Origin: Desulfobacteraceae bacterium
Lineage (GTDB): Bacteria > Desulfobacterota > Desulfobacteria > Desulfobacterales > Desulfatirhabdiaceae
Length of the DNA stretch: 64,000 bases
Direction of reading: 5' to 3'
NCBI GenBank assembly: GCA_037439445.1
Contig: JBBIWB010000011.1
Coordinates: 6,671 to 70,670, forward strand
Both the position numbers and the translations under genes were made by a program. The notes below the pieces were generated by a model. It saw only the letters and a list, made by a program, of their open reading frames with translations, was not told where the DNA came from and made no database searches. Shown here one piece after another: positions 43,061-53,191 of the stretch. Positions within the stretch are counted from its first letter, which is position 1. The number at the start of each line of letters is the position of its first letter.

Positions 43061-43765
43061 ATGTCTGTTTCAGCTATCATAGTTGCAGGTGGAAAAGGTT
43101 TCCGGATGGGCTCTGCCGTCAGCAAGCAATATATTGTGATTGCAGGCAAGCCTATTTTGCACCATACACTTGAAATATTCGATTCCTGTTCCTGTATTGA
43201 TGATATTTTTGTGGTTCTTCCTGCAGAAGACATGAACTGTTTTGAAAGACTCATTCCTCAAAAAACATTCAACAAAAAAATCCATCCTGTCAAGGGAGGG
43301 AAGGAGCGTCAAGATTCTGTTTATAACGGGATAATGGCAGTTCCTTACAAGAAATCACATGTAGTGATCCATGATGCAGTGCGACCTTTTGTAAGCCCTG
43401 GCATCATAACTGAATGTGTAAACAACGCTATCATTTCAGGAGCTTGTGTTGTCGGAGTCCCTGCTGTGGATACATTAAAACAGGTAAGTACTGCCGGTCA
43501 TATAGTCAATACAATCGATAGGGGCAGTATTTGGATGGCTCAAACCCCCCAGGTTTTTGATATTGACCTCATAAGGTATGCACATGAGAAGGCAAAAGAA
43601 GATAATGTTGCAGGAACAGATGATGCCATGCTGGTTGAGAGGATAGGCCGCAAAGTTAATATAATAGCAGGTACGAGATTAAATTTAAAAATTACAACAC
43701 CTGAAGATATATTATTTGCAGAGGCTTTATTTAAGAATCTTGAAAAAGCGAGGTCTCATTCATGA
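43061..43765 (+). CDS. ispD: 2-C-methyl-D-erythritol 4-phosphate cytidylyltransferase
   Basis: Contains IIVAGGKGFRMG..SKQY, VHDAVRPF, Q(T)PQ.F and TDDA motifs. Confidence 0.9.
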   Translation: MSVSAIIVAGGKGFRMGSAVSKQYIVIAGKPILHHTLEIFDSCSCIDDIFVVLPAEDMNCFERLIPQKTFNKKIHPVKGGKERQDSVYNGIMAVPYKKSHVVIHDAVRPFVSPGIITECVNNAIISGACVVGVPAVDTLKQVSTAGHIVNTIDRGSIWMAQTPQVFDIDLIRYAHEKAKEDNVAGTDDAMLVERIGRKVNIIAGTRLNLKITTPEDILFAEALFKNLEKARSHS

Positions 43766-45378
43766 ATCATACTGATATCAACCCGGACTCAAAGCAGCAA
43801 GACGATTTTATCAAAGACCTGAAAGCAACATTTGCAAAGATGCCAAATGATATCGATCTTATGCTATTTACCCAACAAGGCAGAGACGATGTGTTTGCAG
43901 AAGGTTGCAGGCAGATTGTAAGGGCTTTTCGGGAGCTGACGAATAGAATTCATTTCCGGGAATACGGCATGGATCATGAGATGGCGGTAAAATGGGAAAT
44001 TGAACACTCTCCAACCCTTCTGATAGCTCCTGAAAGATACAATATAAGGTGGATAGGCGCTCCGCTTGGTGAAGAAGTCAGAACATTTCTTGAAATCATG
44101 TTGATGGCAGGCTCAGGTAACAGCAATCTAAGCGATCAGTCCAGAAGAGTGCTGGAAAAGATTGATTCACCCCGTCAGATCAAGGTATTTGTTAGCCCGA
44201 CATGCCCTTATTGTCCTCAGGAAGCTGTTAATGCAGCAAGGGCTGTGATTGAAAAGCCCGGTCTCTTTTCTCTTGAAATCATAGATATACAGTGCAAACC
44301 TGAAATAGCAAGCCGGTATTCGGCAGAAAGTGTTCCACAGGCTTTTGCAAATGATGTACTGATAGGTTTGGGGGCTCAGCCTGAAGAAGTATTTGCGATA
44401 TCACTTGGCAAACTGGAGCCTCAGACGATATTTATTCCTGACAGCGATGCTGAGCTTGTTGAAGCTGATCTTCTCATCGCAGGAGGAGGGCCTGCAGGGC
44501 TTACTGCTGGAATTTATGCAGTAAGAAGTGGACTTAGTACTGTAATAATTGAACGCAATGCCCTTGGAGGGCAGGTGGCAACAACCCCTGTTGTTGAAAA
44601 CTACCCCGGATTCAAGCAGATCCCTGGGAAGACCCTTGTCGATATAATGGTTTCCCATGCTATTCAATATGTTCAGATTTTTCAGGGGGAAGAAGTCCTT
44701 GATGTTGTAATCGGCAAGCCTTTTGAAGTTATCACAAGCAGGCGACGGTTCAGGGTCAAGAGCATTCTTCTTGCAACAGGAGCAAACCATAAGCATTTGA
44801 ATGTTCCTGGTGAATCAAGGCTTTCAGGCAGAGGTGTAAGCTATTGCAGCACCTGCGATGGACCGCTTTTCAAGAACAGAAGGGTTGTAATGGTAGGAGG
44901 TGGAAACTCTGCAGTAACAGAAGCTCTTCACCTACACAATATGGGTGTCAAGGTAACTCTTGTCCACCGCAGAGACAGACTGCGTGCCCAGGATTTTCTG
45001 GTAAAACAGCTTGAATCAAGCGGTATTCCAGTTTTATTGAATTCTGAAATATCGGAAATTCTGGGTAAGAACAGGGTGGAGTCTGTAAAGCTGAGAAATA
45101 CTCTGGATAATAAGAGCTCTGATTTTTCAGTCGAAGGTGTTTTTATTGCTATAGGGTATGAACCTAGTGTTGATCTTGCCAGAAAAATCGGTGTTGCACT
45201 TACTCCTGATGGCTTTATTGAAAAGGATGAAAAGCATAGAACGAGTATTGCAGGAATCTATTCTGCAGGAGATGTTGAAGGAGGATACAAGCAGATAGTG
45301 ACTGCGGCAGGCCAGGGTTCAGAAGCAGCCATGTCCATTTTCGAGGATATAATTAATCCTTACTGGAACAGGGGCTGA
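43762..45378 (+). CDS. AhpF-like fusion: double thioredoxin-fold (PDO/glutaredoxin-like, CPYC) N-domain plus thioredoxin-disulfide reductase
   Basis: N-domain FVSPTCPYCPQ. The flavoprotein part has IAGGGPAGLTAG, the redox CSTCDG, GGGNSAVTEA and GDV motifs. 4-nt overlap with ispD. Confidence 0.85.
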   Translation: MNHTDINPDSKQQDDFIKDLKATFAKMPNDIDLMLFTQQGRDDVFAEGCRQIVRAFRELTNRIHFREYGMDHEMAVKWEIEHSPTLLIAPERYNIRWIGAPLGEEVRTFLEIMLMAGSGNSNLSDQSRRVLEKIDSPRQIKVFVSPTCPYCPQEAVNAARAVIEKPGLFSLEIIDIQCKPEIASRYSAESVPQAFANDVLIGLGAQPEEVFAISLGKLEPQTIFIPDSDAELVEADLLIAGGGPAGLTAGIYAVRSGLSTVIIERNALGGQVATTPVVENYPGFKQIPGKTLVDIMVSHAIQYVQIFQGEEVLDVVIGKPFEVITSRRRFRVKSILLATGANHKHLNVPGESRLSGRGVSYCSTCDGPLFKNRRVVMVGGGNSAVTEALHLHNMGVKVTLVHRRDRLRAQDFLVKQLESSGIPVLLNSEISEILGKNRVESVKLRNTLDNKSSDFSVEGVFIAIGYEPSVDLARKIGVALTPDGFIEKDEKHRTSIAGIYSAGDVEGGYKQIVTAAGQGSEAAMSIFEDIINPYWNRG

Positions 45379-45458: not shown

Positions 45459-45800
45459 GTGAGAAAAAGATTAAGGAAGAAACTGAATCTAGGAGAATTT
45501 AAGGAAACAGGTTTTGAGCTAACATGGAAATTTATTCAGGAACCTGAAGAACTTGATCTTGACAAGTTTATCGATGATTTTCTTGCTGCAATAGAAAACA
45601 GAGGGCTTGCCTTCGGAGGTGTTTTTTCCGTTGACGATTCCTGGCAGGGCATCATAGCAAGCAGCAAGAGGTATTCCTGTCCTGATGCCTCTGATAAGGA
45701 GTTTGTTTCAGATTGGTTTAAATCAAGAACAGACATCAAGGATTTTTTTATAAGCCATGACATCGATTTATGGTATCAATGCGAATGTTGTTCTGACTGA
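45459..45800 (+). CDS. yggL: YggL-family (DUF469) protein
   Basis: The N-terminus RKRLRKKLNLGEFKETGFEL and the ~113-aa size are typical of YggL. GTG start 7 nt after AAAGGA. Confidence 0.65.
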   Translation: MRKRLRKKLNLGEFKETGFELTWKFIQEPEELDLDKFIDDFLAAIENRGLAFGGVFSVDDSWQGIIASSKRYSCPDASDKEFVSDWFKSRTDIKDFFISHDIDLWYQCECCSD

Positions 45801-46704
45801 TGTATTTCCCTATGAGAAGATTAAGTTTTTGATGAGTTGCGGCAGATATCGCCCCATGGTCGGTTACAAGGGCTGGAGCCAAAGCGCAGGCGCAGGCGCA
45901 ATAGCGCTTTGGGGGCACCCTTCCGGCAGTTAAAAGTATTGCTTTTTTTGCAAAATCTATATTATTGCGCATTGTCGTTAAAATAGCTTCGACAGTCACA
46001 GTCTCATTGGTCTCATGCCAGCTATCGTAATCGGAAATGCAGGCTATGGAAGCGTAGCAGATTTCAGCCTCACGTGCAAGTTTGGCTTCAGGCAGCACTG
46101 TCATGCCTAAGACATCGGCACCCCAGGACTTGTAAAGACGCGATTCAGCCCTGGTTGAAAAGGCCGGGCCTTCCATCGCGATGAAGGTGCCGCCCTTATG
46201 GACTGTAGCTCCTGCCTCCTTGGCCGTCGCGTAGACTATATCACTTAGCACTTGACAGAATGGGTCTGCAAACTGGATATGGGCTACGATGTCGCCTCCA
46301 AAAAAGGTGCTGGCGCGCTGGCGGGTGCGATCTATAATCTGGTTGGGCACTATGAGGTGACCTGGCTTCAGCTCTTCTTTGAAGCTGCCGCAAGAGTTGG
46401 ATGAGATGATAAATTCCACGCCGAGCGCTTTCATTGCATATATATTGGCGCGGTAGGGCACATCAGCAGGTGAGAGGCTGTGGCCTTTGCCGTGGCGTGG
46501 TAGAAAAGCTATACCTACTCCGCCTGTCTTTCCTACCACTAAGGCATCTGATGGTTTCCCAAATGGTGTATAAGGCCTGATCTCTTTAACATCCATGAGG
46601 CCTTCGATATCATAGAGCCCTGTTCCGCCGATAATCCCGATTCTGACCTGACCATCCAGAGACTCTTCATAACTCTGGTTTACTTGCTGAGCTTCTATTT
46701 CCAT
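45748..46704 (-). CDS. mtnP: S-methyl-5'-thioadenosine phosphorylase
   Basis: Contains IGIIGGTGLY, FLPRHG.GH, SVGS-like (SNSCGS), GPAFST.AES..Y and GMT..PEA.LARE. Confidence 0.85.
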   Translation of the reverse strand: MEIEAQQVNQSYEESLDGQVRIGIIGGTGLYDIEGLMDVKEIRPYTPFGKPSDALVVGKTGGVGIAFLPRHGKGHSLSPADVPYRANIYAMKALGVEFIISSNSCGSFKEELKPGHLIVPNQIIDRTRQRASTFFGGDIVAHIQFADPFCQVLSDIVYATAKEAGATVHKGGTFIAMEGPAFSTRAESRLYKSWGADVLGMTVLPEAKLAREAEICYASIACISDYDSWHETNETVTVEAILTTMRNNIDFAKKAILLTAGRVPPKRYCACACALAPALVTDHGAISAATHQKLNLLIGKYISQNNIRIDTINRCHGL

Positions 46705-46837: not shown

Positions 46838-47359
46838 TCAGGTTTCCTGATGAATCTTCTGCATCCTGATCCCGGAATAAACAGCCCTGCAAATACCGCT
46901 TACACCGCCTTTGAGTCCTTCAGGGTTTTTGAAACCCTCGCTGCTCTGCAGGCTTGCCATGTAAGCAGTGGAGTCCTGAAGGTTCTCATAAGTCATACCG
47001 GCATGACCTCTGGGAGTTATTGCAAAAAGCCAGCCCCTGCTGTAAGTATCCTTGTTGATTAGCTCAGTATCTGCTCTGACTTCTGCATTGAAGTGAATGA
47101 CACCTTGAACAGGGGCATCAATGTAGAGAATCTTGCCAGTGATGGCAAAGAGTATGCACTGGTTCTGCTCAACAGTTTCTCCTTCTTCAGTAAGAAAGTT
47201 AAGTTCTTGAACTCCACCGGAAAGAACAATCGCAGGTTCGGAAAGACCAAAGAAGATGGCTTTCTTGTCCAGTCTTGCCCATAGTCCATGTTTTAATGAA
47301 TAACGGAGATTATCAGGGATAGTCACCCGATGCCCAAGAAATTTATCAATTACTGCCAT
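46838..47359 (-). CDS. GcvH-like (lipoyl/biotinyl hybrid-barrel) protein with ~45-aa C-terminal extension
   Basis: LRYSLKHGLWARLD...FFGLSEPAIVLSGGVQELNF...GETVEQNQCILFAITGKILYIDAPVQG follows the GcvH pattern (Y...HEW....VGIT..A...G.I...LP..G......VES.K....YAP.SG). AAGGAG RBS. Confidence 0.65.
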   Translation of the reverse strand: MAVIDKFLGHRVTIPDNLRYSLKHGLWARLDKKAIFFGLSEPAIVLSGGVQELNFLTEEGETVEQNQCILFAITGKILYIDAPVQGVIHFNAEVRADTELINKDTYSRGWLFAITPRGHAGMTYENLQDSTAYMASLQSSEGFKNPEGLKGGVSGICRAVYSGIRMQKIHQET

Positions 47360-47430: not shown

Positions 47431-47763
47431 TCAGTGCTTTGATGCTCGCTTAGGGGAGAAAATCTTATCCCAAAGCCCCTTCTTTTTCGGCCCAGCAATT
47501 TTCAGGTGCCGGCAGATGGAATTTTCAATCCTGTCCTGTGAAATACCGGCACCTTCAACCACTATCTCATCAGCGACCATTACTGCAGGTGCAACAGGCA
47601 GATTCAGTTCAAAGTATTCATCATTCTGATATTCAGCGACTGGTTTGGACGTGATTTCGATATCTATATCCTTGTATCTTTTGCCCAGACCGGGCATCAT
47701 TTTCAGAAAATTCTTTCACGGCTTTCCATTAGGTTCATTCAGGAAAAATCTCACCTTCAGCAT
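47431..47763 (-). CDS. Small Trx-fold protein (redox-active disulfide protein 2 / Thioredoxin_3-like), candidate selenoprotein with in-frame TGA at codon 16
   Basis: The ATG at 47763 lies 6-7 nt after AAGGAG and 15 nt after the upstream gene's stop. Its frame reads MLKVRFFLNEPNGKP-TGA-KNFLKMMPGLGK... and is continuous with the 89-aa track ORF. The TGA (47716-47718) falls at the C-terminal Cys position of a Trx-fold CxxC site, and a hairpin lies downstream. Confidence 0.6.
47682..47696 (-). promoter_or_regulatory. SECIS-like stem-loop downstream of the in-frame UGA of the Trx-fold gene
   Basis: The mRNA reads U-GCCC-GGUCU-GGGC-A. The loop begins about 24 nt after the UGA. The GGUCU apical loop resembles the E. 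coli fdhF SECIS loop as I remember it. Confidence 0.45.
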
Positions 47764-47778
47764 TTTTTTCTCCTTTTT

Positions 47779-49530
47779 TTAGCTGCCTGTTTTCTTAAGC
47801 TCAGTCATACGGCCAATGAACTGATCCGGAGGGAGGTAATCCACCAGGCGCAGCTCCTGCTTTTCAATGCCGTCAGCATCCAAAAATACTATGGTTGGAA
47901 GGCCTTTGACTTGGTATTGCTGAAGCAGGCTGTCATTCAACGAATTCCCTCCGGTTGTGACATCAACTTTAATCATGACAAAGTCAGTATCAGCAAGCTT
48001 TACGACCATAGGATCGTGAAAAGTTACTTCTTCGATCTCAACGCATGCTGCGCACCATGAGGCATAGAAATCGATGATTACAGGCTTTTTAAGGTTTCTG
48101 GCCTCTTTAAGTGTTTCCTCTGAATAAGATTTCCAGTCAACTCCTTGTCCCTTCAAGGCCGATGATGTGATGATGACAGTGACCAAAACCAGACATGCTA
48201 TCCCTGCTGCGCCCTTAAGCAAGGGAAATGCCCTGAAGCTGGCACTGCTCTTGTCGATCCATCCAAGGTGTAAACCAGCAGCAAGTATGGCAAGGGCAAA
48301 CAGAAAGGTTCCAATGTGGCCGGGAAGAACTGGCCTTATGAAATGAACGGCCATTGCAACCAGAATCCAGCCCATGAGTTTTCTTACCCAGAGCATCCAA
48401 TCACCCGAGCGGGGCAGTTTTTTCAGTTGTCCGGAGAACAAGGCAAGGAAAAAGAGGGGCAGTCCCAGTCCAAGGCTCAGGGTAAAAAATATCACAAATC
48501 CGAGCCAGGGGCTTCCCATGCTTGCCACCCAGGTCAAAAGCCCCAGTACGAAAGGTCCGATGCAAGGGGCTGCTATCACTCCGAGGGTCAGCCCCATGAA
48601 GAGGCTTCCAAAGTAGCCAGTATATGATTTTGCAGCAGCCTGCGTAAGTCCGCTCGGAAGGTGCATTTCCCAAAACCCGAAGAGGCTTGTTGCAAAAAAG
48701 ACAAGAACCAACGCCACTACAATCAGGACAAAGGGATTCCGGAGCATCGATCCCATGAGGCCTCCTGTGAGCGAGGCTATTACCCCGAGTAAGGAGTTTG
48801 TAACCGAAAGACCCATAACGTAGCACAAACCGTGTGTTGCTAGCTTTCCATGTCCTTCTCCTTCCTTTGCAGCGTGGCCGCCGAAATAGGATATGGTAAT
48901 GGGAATAAGAGGGTAGATACAGGGGGTGAGGTTCAGGGCAATGCCGCCGACAAAAATACCAAGGAGTGTCAGGATCATTGCCCAGCCATAGAGCTGTCCA
49001 TATGCACTTGGAGATTCTATTGTCTTAGCCAGTCCTGCAGGAGTGCTGTCAACCGGCAGTCCCAGACTCTGCCATTCAGGAAAGCCGTATGGATCACGGT
49101 AGACGTTTTTATATCCGAGTTTTACAGCCACACGGGCTGCCGAGTCGCTGCGGGCTCAACTGAGACCCGCTCAATAGAAGATGACTGTGCGCTCCTTGTC
49201 CTGTCCCAGGATATTTTCAAGTGCCGAAGCCTTGTGCCATCTCGACCAGCCTGTTGGCTCCATGGGAAAGTTTACCGCACCCCTGATATGCCCTGTCCGG
49301 TATTCCCATTCCTGGCGGGTGTCCACCAGAAGAAGGCTGTCTGCATCTTTTTTATGGAGCTCCATGAGAGCTTCTGTGGTGATAATAGCATAGCCCCCGT
49401 TTTTGCCTTCGGTTAAAACATCGTCCCATGTGGATTGTCTGGGTGTAACTGCGCGATTTGTTAGCCACAGAGCTCCAACCGTCAGAAATATTGCCGCAAT
49501 AGCTATCAATGTCGTTTTTCTGTTCTGCAT
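47779..49530 (-). CDS. Signal-anchored rhodanese :: DsbD/CcdA transmembrane domain :: thioredoxin fusion, candidate selenoprotein with two in-frame TGA codons in the rhodanese active-site loop
   Basis: Track ORFs 49171..49530 and 47779..49131 are in the same frame and are separated only by TGA (49171-49173) and TGA (49156-49158). Read-through gives ...ERTVIFY-U-AGLS-U-ARSDSAARVAVKLGYKNVYRDPYGFPEW, a complete rhodanese domain. This is followed by 8 TM helices with LNLTPCIYP and IAAPCIGP, then FYASWCAAC. Confidence 0.6.
49125..49170 (-). promoter_or_regulatory. Stem-loops downstream of the rhodanese in-frame UGA codons (SECIS candidates)
   Basis: The mRNA hairpin GCGGG(U)CUC-AGUU-GAG-CCCGC (49150-49170) starts right after UGA-1 and contains UGA-2. 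A second hairpin, CAGCC-CGUGU-GGCUG (49125-49139), has its loop 21 nt after UGA-2 and 36 nt after UGA-1. Confidence 0.4.
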
Positions 49531-49566: not shown

Positions 49567-49827
49567 CTATACTTTTCCTTCACGACTCAGTTTTGAAAGG
49601 AGAAACGTTGTCCCCCTCAGAGAAAGCCCTGTCTTTTCTGCGAGCTCTCCCGGATTGAGATGGCCGTGTTTTCTTAAGAGTGATATGAATTCATCTTCTA
49701 TTCCCCACAGAAACTCAGAACGCGTCTGATCACCCAGAGTCAGGAATAGCGTTTTCAATGCCATGGATATTTCATTAAGCGCTTCTTCAGGGTCCATGCT
49801 TCCAATTATTTTCTGAATCTCTTCCAT
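49567..49827 (-). CDS. Small hypothetical protein with HTH-like C-terminus
   Basis: 86 aa. The segment HLNPGELAEKTGLSLRGTTFLLSKLSREGKV looks like the HTH of ArsR/MarR-type winged-helix proteins, but the protein ends before a wing. Confidence 0.4.
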   Translation of the reverse strand: MEEIQKIIGSMDPEEALNEISMALKTLFLTLGDQTRSEFLWGIEDEFISLLRKHGHLNPGELAEKTGLSLRGTTFLLSKLSREGKV

Positions 49828-49851: not shown

Positions 49852-50184
49852 TCAAAAAGTTTTTCTTGCATTTAACAGGTCTGTTGCCATGGTGTTCAAC
49901 GTTTTAACTACATCAAGAATTCTATGATCTACCAATTCATAATAGATGAAGGGGCCATTTCGTTCAATATTCACCAGGAGTGAACGCTTGAGTTCCTTCA
50001 GGTGATGAGAAACAAGAGGCTGAGAGAGGCCGAGCTCCTCAACTATGCCTGAAACGGATTTCTTGCCGTTGCTCACACACAGTATTATCCTCAAGCGATT
50101 TTCATCAGAAAGGCTTTTTGCCAGAAAAGCAACTTTCTGAAAATGCTCATTGCACATCACCATTTCCTCCTGCTCAAAAAGCAT
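49852..50184 (-). CDS. ArsR/SmtB-family transcriptional regulator
   Basis: The pattern LSDENRLRIILCV...KSVSGIVEELGLSQPLVSHHLKELK...LV is the classic ArsR HTH. Confidence 0.85.
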   Translation of the reverse strand: MLFEQEEMVMCNEHFQKVAFLAKSLSDENRLRIILCVSNGKKSVSGIVEELGLSQPLVSHHLKELKRSLLVNIERNGPFIYYELVDHRILDVVKTLNTMATDLLNARKTF

Positions 50185-50532: not shown

Positions 50533-51183
50533 TCATAGGCTTTTCTGCAATGCCTTTGCAAAAGCAAGTGAGAGATCAGTGCTTGGATTATTTGACATGT
50601 ATTCTTTCAGGCCTGTTATATCGTCAATATCTGACATCTCAGGAAGGCATCCGTAATCTATACCCAGAAAGCTGGCTGTTCTTACAGTTTCTGTAAACAC
50701 TGTATCAGTACCCCAGGCAATGCCTTCAAACAGCTCGGGGTGAAACACGGACAAACCGACGAGATAGTATCCACCGTCAGAGGAAGGACCGAGCACAAGT
50801 TCAAAGTGTCCAAGAAGATCAAAAGCCTGTAATATGTCTGAAGATGAAATACCAGGACAATCCGTCCCTGTTAAGCATATCCTTGTGTATCCGCGGGCAA
50901 ATTCAGATTTAAAAGCCGCCGAAATTCTCTTGCCGAGATCCCCTTCCGGTTGATTCCTAATAACTGCAGAAGGCAGTATTGCCTCGAAGAACGCCAAGCT
51001 GCTTTCAGGTGTCTTGTATATAACAATATCGTAATGAGGCCAAGTCACCCCATCTATAACGTGATGAAGGATTAGATCATAGAGCAAGGCTGCTTTCTGA
51101 AAGCCGACATCTTTTGCAAGCCTTGTCTTAACCAGCCCTGGAACAGGTTCTCTTGCAAAAATAAGGAGAAGATCATTTTTCAT
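50533..51183 (-). CDS. DUF2064 / TIGR04282-type nucleotidyl/glycosyl-transferase-like protein (rSAM/selenodomain- or arsenosugar-associated 'transferase 1')
   Basis: The N-terminus LLLIFAREPVPGLVKTRLAKDVG is the DUF2064 hallmark. 4-nt overlap with the upstream GT2 gene. Confidence 0.8.
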   Translation of the reverse strand: MKNDLLLIFAREPVPGLVKTRLAKDVGFQKAALLYDLILHHVIDGVTWPHYDIVIYKTPESSLAFFEAILPSAVIRNQPEGDLGKRISAAFKSEFARGYTRICLTGTDCPGISSSDILQAFDLLGHFELVLGPSSDGGYYLVGLSVFHPELFEGIAWGTDTVFTETVRTASFLGIDYGCLPEMSDIDDITGLKEYMSNNPSTDLSLAFAKALQKSL

Positions 51184-51869
51184 CTTATATCCCTGTAAAG
51201 TCCTGCAAGATAATCAGGTGATACACCCAGCCTGAACAAGGAAGGTATTGCCAGCATCAGCAAAGTTGCGGTTATGATTCCATGCTTAAAGCGCCTGTAG
51301 GAAACATCAACAGTCTGTCTGGAATAGTATATTTTACCGATCCCAGATATTTTTCTTGAAAACTCAAAATCTTCCATTATGGGTATTTCCGGAAAACCTC
51401 TAACAGATTCAAAGGCTCTTTTTTCCACAAAGATTGCCTGATCGCCGTACATGTTTTTTGCATAACTGGATCGCAAACTGGACAAAAAGGCAAAAAAACG
51501 CTCATGTCTTCCGAGAGTTTCATGTCTGCCGCATCTGATCCTGAATCCGCCTGCGACACAGCCACTTTCAATTGCCTTCTCGACCTCTTTTTTCCATCCC
51601 TCAGGAAGTTCAGCATCGGCATGCAGGAACAAAAGAACATCGCCTTTTGCAAAAGAAGCTCCAAAATTCATCTGGACTCCTCTGCCCTTACTTGGAGACT
51701 GCAGAAGCATCACGTCTCCATGAGCCTCTATGATGCAGGCAGTCCGGTCAGAGCTTCTGCAGTCAACAGCTATAACTTCGGTCTCGGGGTCTGTTACTGC
51801 CGCAAGACGTCTAAGCTGTTCTTCTATTATCTTTTCTTCGTTGTAAACTGGTATTATTATAGAGACCAT
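51180..51869 (-). CDS. GT2 glycosyltransferase, TIGR04283-type (rSAM/selenodomain- or arsenosugar-associated 'transferase 2')
   Basis: Contains VSIIIPVYNEE, VIAVDCRSSDRT and LFLHADAELP. Located immediately downstream of the radical SAM gene. Confidence 0.8.
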   Translation of the reverse strand: MVSIIIPVYNEEKIIEEQLRRLAAVTDPETEVIAVDCRSSDRTACIIEAHGDVMLLQSPSKGRGVQMNFGASFAKGDVLLFLHADAELPEGWKKEVEKAIESGCVAGGFRIRCGRHETLGRHERFFAFLSSLRSSYAKNMYGDQAIFVEKRAFESVRGFPEIPIMEDFEFSRKISGIGKIYYSRQTVDVSYRRFKHGIITATLLMLAIPSLFRLGVSPDYLAGLYRDIR

Positions 51870-51873
51870 CAAA

Positions 51874-52854
51874 CTATTCCAGCGATCCCTGGCATGACGA
51901 ACCAGTGCCTGCTGTACATCCGTAGCAATGGTTATGGAGCACTATAGGGCGGTTTCCAAGCTGTTTTAAGTCAAAATTTTCTATATGTCCGGAGGAGGAT
52001 ACTCTAAGACCAAGCATTTGGTTAAAATCGCAGTCATGTAAGGTTCCGTCCCAGGCCACCGAAACCGTTGTTCTGCACATCACGCTTTTAAGTGTATCGG
52101 GATTGAAAGCATCAGTTAATGTCTGCATGTATTCGTCATAATTGCCTGAAGCAAGAAGAAAATCAAGATATCTGCCAACTGGCATGTTGTTCAGGCAATA
52201 GAGTGTATTGAAATCAATGCCGTGAAATTTCCAGAGCCTTGTGCGGTAATCCTGCTCAAGGCTCTTCTGGGAAGCAGGCAGATACGCACCTACCGGGTTA
52301 TGAACGAGGTTGAATAGAAGTCCGGTTCCTGGCTTTGCGTATCCCATTGAGTTAAGCCTTTTGGCAACCCGGATAAATTTTCTGAAGAAACCAGCGCCTC
52401 GCTGGCGGTCGGCTCTTGACTCGTTGCAGTCCGGCAGAGAAGACACGATCTCAATGCCGTTATCAGCGTAGATATTGGCGTAATCAGCGTAATCTTCATC
52501 TTCAAGTATGACCAGGTTTGATCTCACAATCAGGCGGCGCCCCAGCTTTGCTGCCTCCTTAATGAAGACCTTGATACCGGAATTCATCTCAGGGGCTCCG
52601 CCTGTTATATCTATCGTGGTGATTGTTCTGTTTCCCCTTATAACTTCGAGACACAGTTCCAGAACGTCTCCTGGCATCATCTCTTTTCTCTCATTGCCTG
52701 CTTCGACATGGCAGTGTTTGCAGGATAGGTTGCAGCGCTTCCCGACATTTAACTGAAGTATTTCCACTCCTGATGCAAACATTGGCCCGTGCAGTTTTCT
52801 GTTGAAACTTGTATTATATTTTTCGAGCACGGCGAGTTGATAGTTGTCCTGCAT
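51874..52854 (-). CDS. Radical SAM / Cys-rich C-terminal domain protein (ArsS-type, TIGR04167-like)
   Basis: Radical SAM cluster motif GKRCNLSCKHCHVEAG. C-terminal Cys-rich tail NHCYGCTAGTGSSCQG. In some members of this family the tail Cys positions are selenocysteine (recalled family description). Confidence 0.85.
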   Translation of the reverse strand: MQDNYQLAVLEKYNTSFNRKLHGPMFASGVEILQLNVGKRCNLSCKHCHVEAGNERKEMMPGDVLELCLEVIRGNRTITTIDITGGAPEMNSGIKVFIKEAAKLGRRLIVRSNLVILEDEDYADYANIYADNGIEIVSSLPDCNESRADRQRGAGFFRKFIRVAKRLNSMGYAKPGTGLLFNLVHNPVGAYLPASQKSLEQDYRTRLWKFHGIDFNTLYCLNNMPVGRYLDFLLASGNYDEYMQTLTDAFNPDTLKSVMCRTTVSVAWDGTLHDCDFNQMLGLRVSSSGHIENFDLKQLGNRPIVLHNHCYGCTAGTGSSCQGSLE

Positions 52855-52855
52855 A

Positions 52856-53191
52856 TTACAAGGCCTTTTTCTTGATTATCTTTCTCATCTGTGTCGAGTG
52901 GGCGAGTGTAATGCCTGCCATCATGGCAGCACCAACATGCACGGCTTCCATCATTTCATCTTCTCCTATCCCAAGAGAAAGGCACTTGTTGGTATAGGCG
53001 TCGATACAGTAAGGACAGCTCTGTGTCATGGCAACGGCTATGGCTATAAGCGCCTTTTCGCGTTCGTTCAGCTTCCCTGCTGAAGTTGATGCCATGTAAT
53101 AATCGAAAAACTTATGTCCCTGTTCCTTGGCATATTCGGTTATGTTTGGAAAATCAGCAAGATCCCCGGGTTCATAATAATTTTGCTTCAT
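52856..53191 (-). CDS. Carboxymuconolactone decarboxylase (AhpD-like) family peroxidase-like protein
   Basis: 111 aa with the CMD-family redox motif QSCPYCIDAY. It abuts the radical SAM gene with a 1-nt gap. Confidence 0.85.
   Translation of the reverse strand: MKQNYYEPGDLADFPNITEYAKEQGHKFFDYYMASTSAGKLNEREKALIAIAVAMTQSCPYCIDAYTNKCLSLGIGEDEMMEAVHVGAAMMAGITLAHSTQMRKIIKKKAL

Follow-up and report, generated by a model that had tools for sequence, protein, structure and literature searches.

Two in-frame UGA codons in a Desulfobacteraceae locus: a probable two-selenocysteine TsoB protein of the three selenoprotein operon

The 64,000-nucleotide stretch of Desulfobacteraceae bacterium DNA analysed here (contig JBBIWB010000011.1 of assembly GCA_037439445.1, positions 6,671 to 70,670; referred to below as the window) carries on its minus strand a 119-aa open reading frame (ORF) for a rhodanese domain, which ends at a TGA codon, and a 450-aa ORF for a DsbD-like membrane protein. 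The question raised by this locus is whether these ORFs represent two genes or the two parts of a single gene in which a pair of in-frame TGA codons is read as selenocysteine (Sec). The locus was identified as tsoB of the "three selenoprotein operon", predicted to encode an inner-membrane selenoprotein of 583 residues, with Sec inserted at both UGA codons; the probability of this reading was put at about 0.9.

Reading frame, domains and identity of the merged protein

The tsoB frame runs from an ATG at 49530 to a TAA at 47781-47779 and comprises 583 sense codons, with exactly two internal stops, both of which are TGA. These two codons, UGA1 (codon 120) and UGA2 (codon 125), are spaced 15 nt apart and lie in the peptide ...ERTVIFY-U-AGLS-U-ARSDSAARVAVKLGYKNVYRDPYGFPEWQ..., where U denotes Sec. 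The ORF finder cut this frame into the 119-aa ORF (49171-49530) and the 450-aa ORF, which was started at a GTG at 49131; this GTG is the internal Val134 codon of the merged frame. An earlier reading of the same DNA (the original prediction) had joined the two ORFs across the TGA codons and had treated the GTG as internal, and the coordinates and sequence on which it relied were correct. Since TGA is the ordinary terminator of tsoR, tsoC and the gene for a GcvH-related protein, all within the same operon, any recoding of tsoB must be local, as that prediction also held. A crude scan of the window for other ORFs interrupted by TGA gave only noise, with the exception of tsoC.

Domain and profile searches were carried out on the merged product with U written as C. 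Pfam assigned a Rhodanese domain (PF00581) to residues 59-155, a DsbD_TM domain to residues 186-402 (140 bits) and a Thioredoxin_7 domain to residues 465-552. The rhodanese match, which scored 59.5 bits against a cutoff of 22.2, spans both TGA codons. Hydropathy analysis revealed an N-terminal hydrophobic segment (residues 6-24) and eight further transmembrane (TM) segments; the eight-TM domain includes two helices beyond the DsbD_TM match. Two membrane cysteines were found in PCxxP contexts, Cys204 (LNLTPCIYP) and Cys323 (IAAPCIGP), and the thioredoxin motif WCAAC supplies Cys493 and Cys496. The anchor, the eight helices and these cysteine motifs had all been anticipated by the original prediction.

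The merged protein also matched the curated NCBIfam model of TsoB, NF045694, above its cutoff (Table 1) and from end to end, with residues 6-578 aligned to profile positions 2-571 of 572. Together with the three Pfam domains, this full-length match bore out the proposed fusion of rhodanese, DsbD-type TM and thioredoxin domains. By comparison, the DsbD model PRK00293 gave 247.6 bits, below its cutoff of 330, and its positions 168-573 of 574 were aligned with TsoB residues 185-579. Because PRK00293 aligned only from position 168, TsoB has counterparts of the beta and gamma parts of DsbD and another domain in place of alpha, in agreement with the suggestion that a rhodanese occupies its place. 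The model NF041203 (rhodanese_LYCAU) scored 35 bits against a cutoff of 115.

Sec120 was aligned with the catalytic Cys of the FYC motif in the solved rhodaneses 6mxv, 2hhg and 3d1p, confirming that the first Sec stands at the catalytic position, at the start of the active-site loop. A two-residue gap was needed in all three alignments (CAGLSCARS compared with CGG--FRS, CAG--GLRS and CA--SGKRG). The active-site loop of TsoB is therefore two residues longer than the standard rhodanese loop, and Sec125 sits in this extension.

The two Sec codons of the rhodanese loop, for U120 and U125, correspond to the motif UxxxxU. In its listing of selenoproteins, a 2026 review gives TsoB with this motif and 2 Sec, citing Haft & Tolstoy 2025, and the Tso operon is named there with the same citation (PMC13188914). 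The listing further includes TsoA (LULAxC), TsoC (GxxU), TsoX and TsoY (PMC13188914). TsoB was named and described in 2025, so the locus is a rediscovery and an ordinary member of a family that is already known, curated and in use for annotation; the remark in the original prediction that no described rhodanese fusion with two Sec residues in one loop was known is outdated. In annotation, the 119-aa and 450-aa ORFs should be joined as a single selenoprotein, and the tsoC gene should be carried past its UGA in the same way.

Conservation of the TGA codons among related loci

A scan of species-representative genomes yielded 33 loci from Desulfobulbaceae, Desulfobacteraceae, Desulforhopalus sp. 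IMCC35007 and other Thermodesulfobacteriota. Conservation was assessed in the 26 related loci that carry the loop and in the window, a set of 27 sequences. TGA was found at both columns in every one of the related loci (26/26, or 27/27 with the window included). The peptide FYU-AGL[TSA]-U-[VA]RSDSAARVAV was common to all 27 sequences, and in-frame protein sequence was conserved both between and beyond the two codons, an agreement well past what chance would give. The loop of the window reads AGLS-U-A (Ser/Ala), compared with AGLT-U-V (Thr/Val) in most of its relatives.

With E <= 1e-20 as the limit, a protein search returned 6245 relatives. Among the best 120, almost every entry was a fragment of about 450 aa (426-483 aa) from this C-terminal part, as would follow from gene callers terminating at these TGA codons. 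Three full-length proteins were also recovered. Two of them, P0062 (C-TGQT-C) and P0120 (C-AGPD-C), have Cys at both Sec columns; the Cys codons at these columns in locus L034 are TGT and TGC. The original prediction had proposed that homologues be examined for Cys or TGA at both positions, and both forms were recovered, TGA/TGA in the loop-carrying loci and Cys/Cys in these two proteins.

The third full-length protein, P0100 (L035, 4358-4423), reads G-HGLA-R, with Gly (GGA) and Arg (CGA) at the Sec columns; each of these codons is one base from TGA. In L035 both of the hairpins described below are intact, and the locus also encodes TsoX and a TsoA that has its Sec motif (NLULAEC). Judged from its sequence, P0100 appears to have lost its two Sec codons recently, while its host has kept the ability to decode Sec.

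In L028 (3938-4420), L029 and L032 the U-x4-U rhodanese was also observed on its own, as a protein that stops at the end of the domain. The copy in L028 adjoins phosphate ABC-transport genes and is not in a tso operon. L033 has just the portion of the domain that follows the loop. None of these four loci is a split at TGA, and they carry no weight against the fusion.

Candidate hairpins and the decoding of the UGA codons

The 66 nt from UGA1 were aligned across the 27 sequences, and RNAalifold folded this alignment into two adjacent hairpins, designated H3 and H2 (Table 1). Both were compared with the bacterial selenocysteine insertion sequence (SECIS) model of bSECISearch, which specifies a loop of 3-9 nt and a stem of 4-16 bp (PMC13188914), together with a G in the first two loop positions, a distance of 16-37 nt from the UGA and an energy <= -7.5 kcal/mol (PMC13188914).

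H2 was the best-supported candidate. Its loop, CGKGU across the family, is 5 nt long with a G at position 2, followed by G or U. Within the stem, 99.4% of cells were paired in the 27 sequences, and the median energy was -9.1 kcal/mol. Pair 36:48, which is formed by two synonymous third positions of Ala codons, was A-U in 14 sequences, G-C in 12 and A-C in 1. When mapped on a neighbour-joining tree of the flanking sequence, the state of this pair required six parsimony changes, indicating that the covariation does not reflect one inherited event. The remaining third positions in the stem were invariant. The apical loop of H2 begins 21 nt after UGA2 and 36 nt after UGA1; consistent with the original expectation of a SECIS element in this region, H2 agreed with the model in all respects for UGA2 and, at the limit of the range, for UGA1.

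The apical loop of H3 begins 18 nt after UGA1, and the 5' arm of this hairpin contains the GA of UGA2. Across the family its loop is CGNAGY and 95.6% of cells were paired, with one-sided changes only. Third positions in the H3 stem had entropies of 0.38-0.75 bits, compared with 1.4-1.8 bits at free four-fold sites; over the H2 and H3 stems together the range was 0-1.0 bits. In the window H3 contains one C.A mismatch, which is caused by a Val-to-Ala change.

A further hairpin, H1, appeared in the minimum free energy (MFE) fold of the window sequence and is mutually exclusive with H3. It was rejected as a conserved element: only 80% of its cells were paired, no covariation was found, two pairs were broken in most sequences, and energies across the family ranged from -11.8 to +0.7 kcal/mol. 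Of the two stem-loops in the original prediction, the one at 49125-49139 therefore proved to be conserved and covarying, whereas the one at 49150-49170 folds in the window without being conserved, and H3 is its alternative. In the Cys/Cys locus L034, a single case, there was one mismatch in each hairpin and the family structure had an energy of -9.5 kcal/mol, compared with approximately -11 to -17 kcal/mol for nearly all Sec forms; the most divergent of these, L018, also gave -9.5 kcal/mol.

The SECIS for UGA1 may be H3, H2 or both. It is suggested, tentatively, that a compact two-hairpin module may serve the two codons, H3 for UGA1 and H2 for UGA2, each approximately 18-21 nt downstream. If this arrangement were correct, UGA2 would lie inside the stem of the first hairpin, and the ribosome would have to melt the first SECIS to read the second Sec codon. 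A somewhat more doubtful possibility is that H2 alone directs Sec insertion at both UGA codons, with H3 and H1 being incidental. Only H2 combines compensatory changes with an energy below the threshold of the model, both of its distances fall within the permitted range, and H3 is weak, being broken in L018 and L016 as well as mismatched in the window. Against a single SECIS, however, stand the high level of pairing in H3 and the far lower variability of its synonymous positions relative to free sites; in addition, 36 nt is at the very edge of the range, and the spacing of H3 from UGA1 is so close to that of H2 from UGA2 that the arrangement looks designed.

Several observations weigh against the assignment of the locus as a two-Sec tsoB gene. 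No tRNA-Sec was found in the 64-kb window, in which the only RNA genes detected were one tRNA-Met and the RNase P RNA, and an NCBIfam scan of 37 window proteins (36 large ORFs and the merged TsoC) identified no SelA, SelB or SelD within the 64 kb. Rfam gave no SECIS-like match, either over the whole window at the gathering threshold or over 47600-49300 at E<=10. H3 fits the geometry of the SECIS model and misses its energy threshold, with a median of -6.0 kcal/mol and a value of -4.7 kcal/mol in the window. The Gly and Arg residues of P0100 show that the protein can persist without the usual residues of the loop. A literature search found no experimental study of Sec insertion or function for any Tso protein, and the electron path and substrate considered below are drawn from domain homology only.

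The absence of Sec machinery from the window would also suit the explanation that the TGA codons are true stops, leaving either a truncated, catalytically dead rhodanese beside a separate DsbD-like protein or a decaying pseudogene. Standard gene callers give exactly such a split, and TGA terminates other genes of the operon. This explanation was nevertheless judged very improbable, because 27/27 sequences keep both TGA codons as well as the in-frame peptide that separates and follows them, the Pfam rhodanese domain extends across these codons, Cys occupies both columns in P0062 and P0120, a covarying hairpin constrains synonymous sites downstream, and the merged protein is full length against a curated selenoprotein model. 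Recoding of the UGA codons by something other than Sec, whether by near-cognate Cys or Trp insertion or by local codon reassignment, was barely credible: some homologues do have Cys at both positions and the assignment as Sec is inferential, but TGA is kept at Cys-like motif positions in TsoA (LULAxC) and TsoC (NEPxGxxU) of the same operon, the hairpin fits the bacterial SECIS model, TGA terminates the neighbouring genes, and TsoB is curated as a selenoprotein family.

Operon context, proposed function and comparison with known systems

The features of the operon and of the tsoB recoding region are given in Table 1. The gene order recurs in related loci, and the GcvH-related gene adjoins tsoB or tsoC in six of them.

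Table 1. Positions of the tso operon genes, the two UGA codons and the candidate hairpins in the window
Feature	Position	Strand	Description
tsoR	49852-50184	-	ArsR/SmtB-type regulator, first gene of the operon; NF045707, 170.7 bits (cutoff 115)
tsoA remnant	49567-49827	-	86 aa; NF045695, 65.8 bits (below cutoff of 170)
tsoB	47779-49530	-	583 codons and TAA stop, read through two UGA codons (Sec120, Sec125); NF045694, 963.1 bits (cutoff 805)
UGA1 (Sec120, codon 120)	49173-49171	-	At the rhodanese catalytic Cys position (FY-U)
UGA2 (Sec125, codon 125)	49158-49156	-	Within the two-residue lengthening of the loop (U-AGLS-U-AR)
H1	49150-49170	-	In the MFE fold of the window sequence; mutually exclusive with H3
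H3	49142-49157	-	GAGCC-CGCAGC-GACUC, 5 bp; candidate SECIS or helper for UGA1
H2	49124-49140	-	GCAGCC-CGUGU-GGCUGU, 6 bp; best-supported candidate SECIS
tsoC	47431-47763	-	110 codons; NF045708, 136.4 bits (cutoff 45)
GcvH-related protein gene	46838-47359	-	Last gene of the operon; NF045810, 237.5 bits (cutoff 150)

TsoR and TsoC scored above their cutoffs, and TsoA was present only as a deleted remnant. When compared to the 149-aa TsoA of L004, L022 and L013, this remnant showed a central in-frame deletion of 63 residues, with the N- and C-terminal parts kept. The deletion takes out the LULAxC Sec motif, which is present as LULAEC in 17 related loci. In the window operon, Sec is therefore to be expected only in TsoB and TsoC, both of which persist intact in a genome where TsoA has lost its Sec core.

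The in-frame UGA of tsoC (47718-47716) lies in the context NEPNGKP-U, and the downstream 89-aa ORF is in fact this 110-codon gene. TGA was found in every occurrence of NEPxGxxU (18 occurrences in 16 related loci, in addition to the window), and the motif is followed by the conserved sequence GCCCAGGUUGGGC. Approximately 20 nt downstream of the tsoC UGA a hairpin, GCCC-GGUCU-GGGC, was read by eye at ~47683-47695; a downstream hairpin, also read by eye, was seen with every NEPxGxxU motif in the 18 occurrences from 16 related loci. In L001 (2592-3100) and L018 (3137-3740) TsoC is present as a tandem pair of paralogues, both of them interrupted by an in-frame TGA.

Directly upstream of tsoR, on the minus strand, an arsenosugar-biosynthesis-type cluster was located at 50533-53191. 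It comprises genes for an AhpD-like, peroxidase-like protein (TIGR04169), the radical SAM protein ArsS (TIGR04167) and glycosyltransferases (TIGR04283 and TIGR04282); the ArsS of the window is a Cys form that ends ...GSSCQGSLE. No arsenosugar genes were found near the tso operon in relatives, within flanks of up to 4 kb, and no functional link to the operon was therefore inferred. Downstream of the operon is MTAP (45748-46704). At 43762-45378 on the plus strand, 2.4 kb from tsoB, lies a gene for a 538-aa protein in which a glutaredoxin/PDO-like N-terminal domain (TIGR02187, CPYC form) is joined to a thioredoxin reductase; this protein is a possible cytoplasmic electron source. Distant homologues of this fusion (39-41% identity) are encoded near the operon in L008 and L020.

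From these features a mechanism can be proposed for TsoB. SelB and Sec-tRNA would be recruited for UGA2 by H2, and for UGA1 either by the weaker adjacent H3, at 18 nt, or again by H2, over 36 nt. The N-terminal anchor, which begins with positive charge, would place the rhodanese domain in the periplasm, and the eight TM helices would bring the chain back outside, so that the C-terminal thioredoxin domain would be periplasmic, as in DsbD. Electrons would pass from cytoplasmic thioredoxin to the membrane pair Cys204/Cys323, then to Cys493/Cys496 of the thioredoxin domain, and finally to the Sec120/Sec125 loop, which would cycle between its diselenide and diselenol forms. Judging by the rhodanese cradle, the U-x4-U loop may carry or reduce a chalcogen or metalloid species, under the control of the ArsR-type TsoR; a regulator of this type fits an operon that responds to metalloid or sulfur species. 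This detailed chemistry is speculative, and confidence in it was at best below even.

On this basis TsoB would be a membrane redox protein with a rare diselenide-capable loop. The window contributes one more TsoB ortholog and a natural TsoA-deleted variant, not a new kind of system. Its residual interest lies in the arrangement of the recoding signals for UGA codons 15 nt apart and in the TsoA deletion.

As for the RNA signals, H2 fits the bSECISearch model; the locus differs in that two UGA codons share the region, that UGA2 lies inside the candidate hairpin of UGA1 and that no curated RNA model matches. The protein shares with other TsoB members its full-length match to the family model, the UxxxxU motif with 2 Sec, the rhodanese, DsbD-TM and thioredoxin domains and the operon with TsoR, TsoA and TsoC. 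It differs from them only in the Ser/Ala of its loop, where Thr/Val is usual, and in a TsoA partner that lacks its Sec core. In common with E. coli-type DsbD (PRK00293), TsoB has two PCxxP cysteines in its TM domain and, at the C-terminus, a thioredoxin domain with CxxC that is predicted to be periplasmic, and its predicted topology likewise places eight TM helices between two periplasmic domains; in contrast, the N-terminal immunoglobulin-like alpha domain of DsbD is replaced in TsoB by a two-Sec rhodanese.

There is a clear fold-level match with single-domain rhodaneses (PF00581; 6mxv, 2hhg and 3d1p), in which the catalytic Cys after the FY beta-strand corresponds to Sec120. These proteins have Cys where TsoB has Sec, and TsoB in addition has a loop that is longer by two residues and a second Sec; its rhodanese domain is tethered to the membrane, probably on the periplasmic side, and forms part of a fusion with a reductase. 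Other rhodanese selenoproteins (forms 1-4, PMC13188914; NF041203) also have Sec in or next to the active-site loop. In forms 1-4, however, there is one Sec (UxxS, UxxG or CxU) and no DsbD fusion (PMC13188914), whereas TsoB is predicted to combine two Sec residues in one loop with a DsbD-type reductase.

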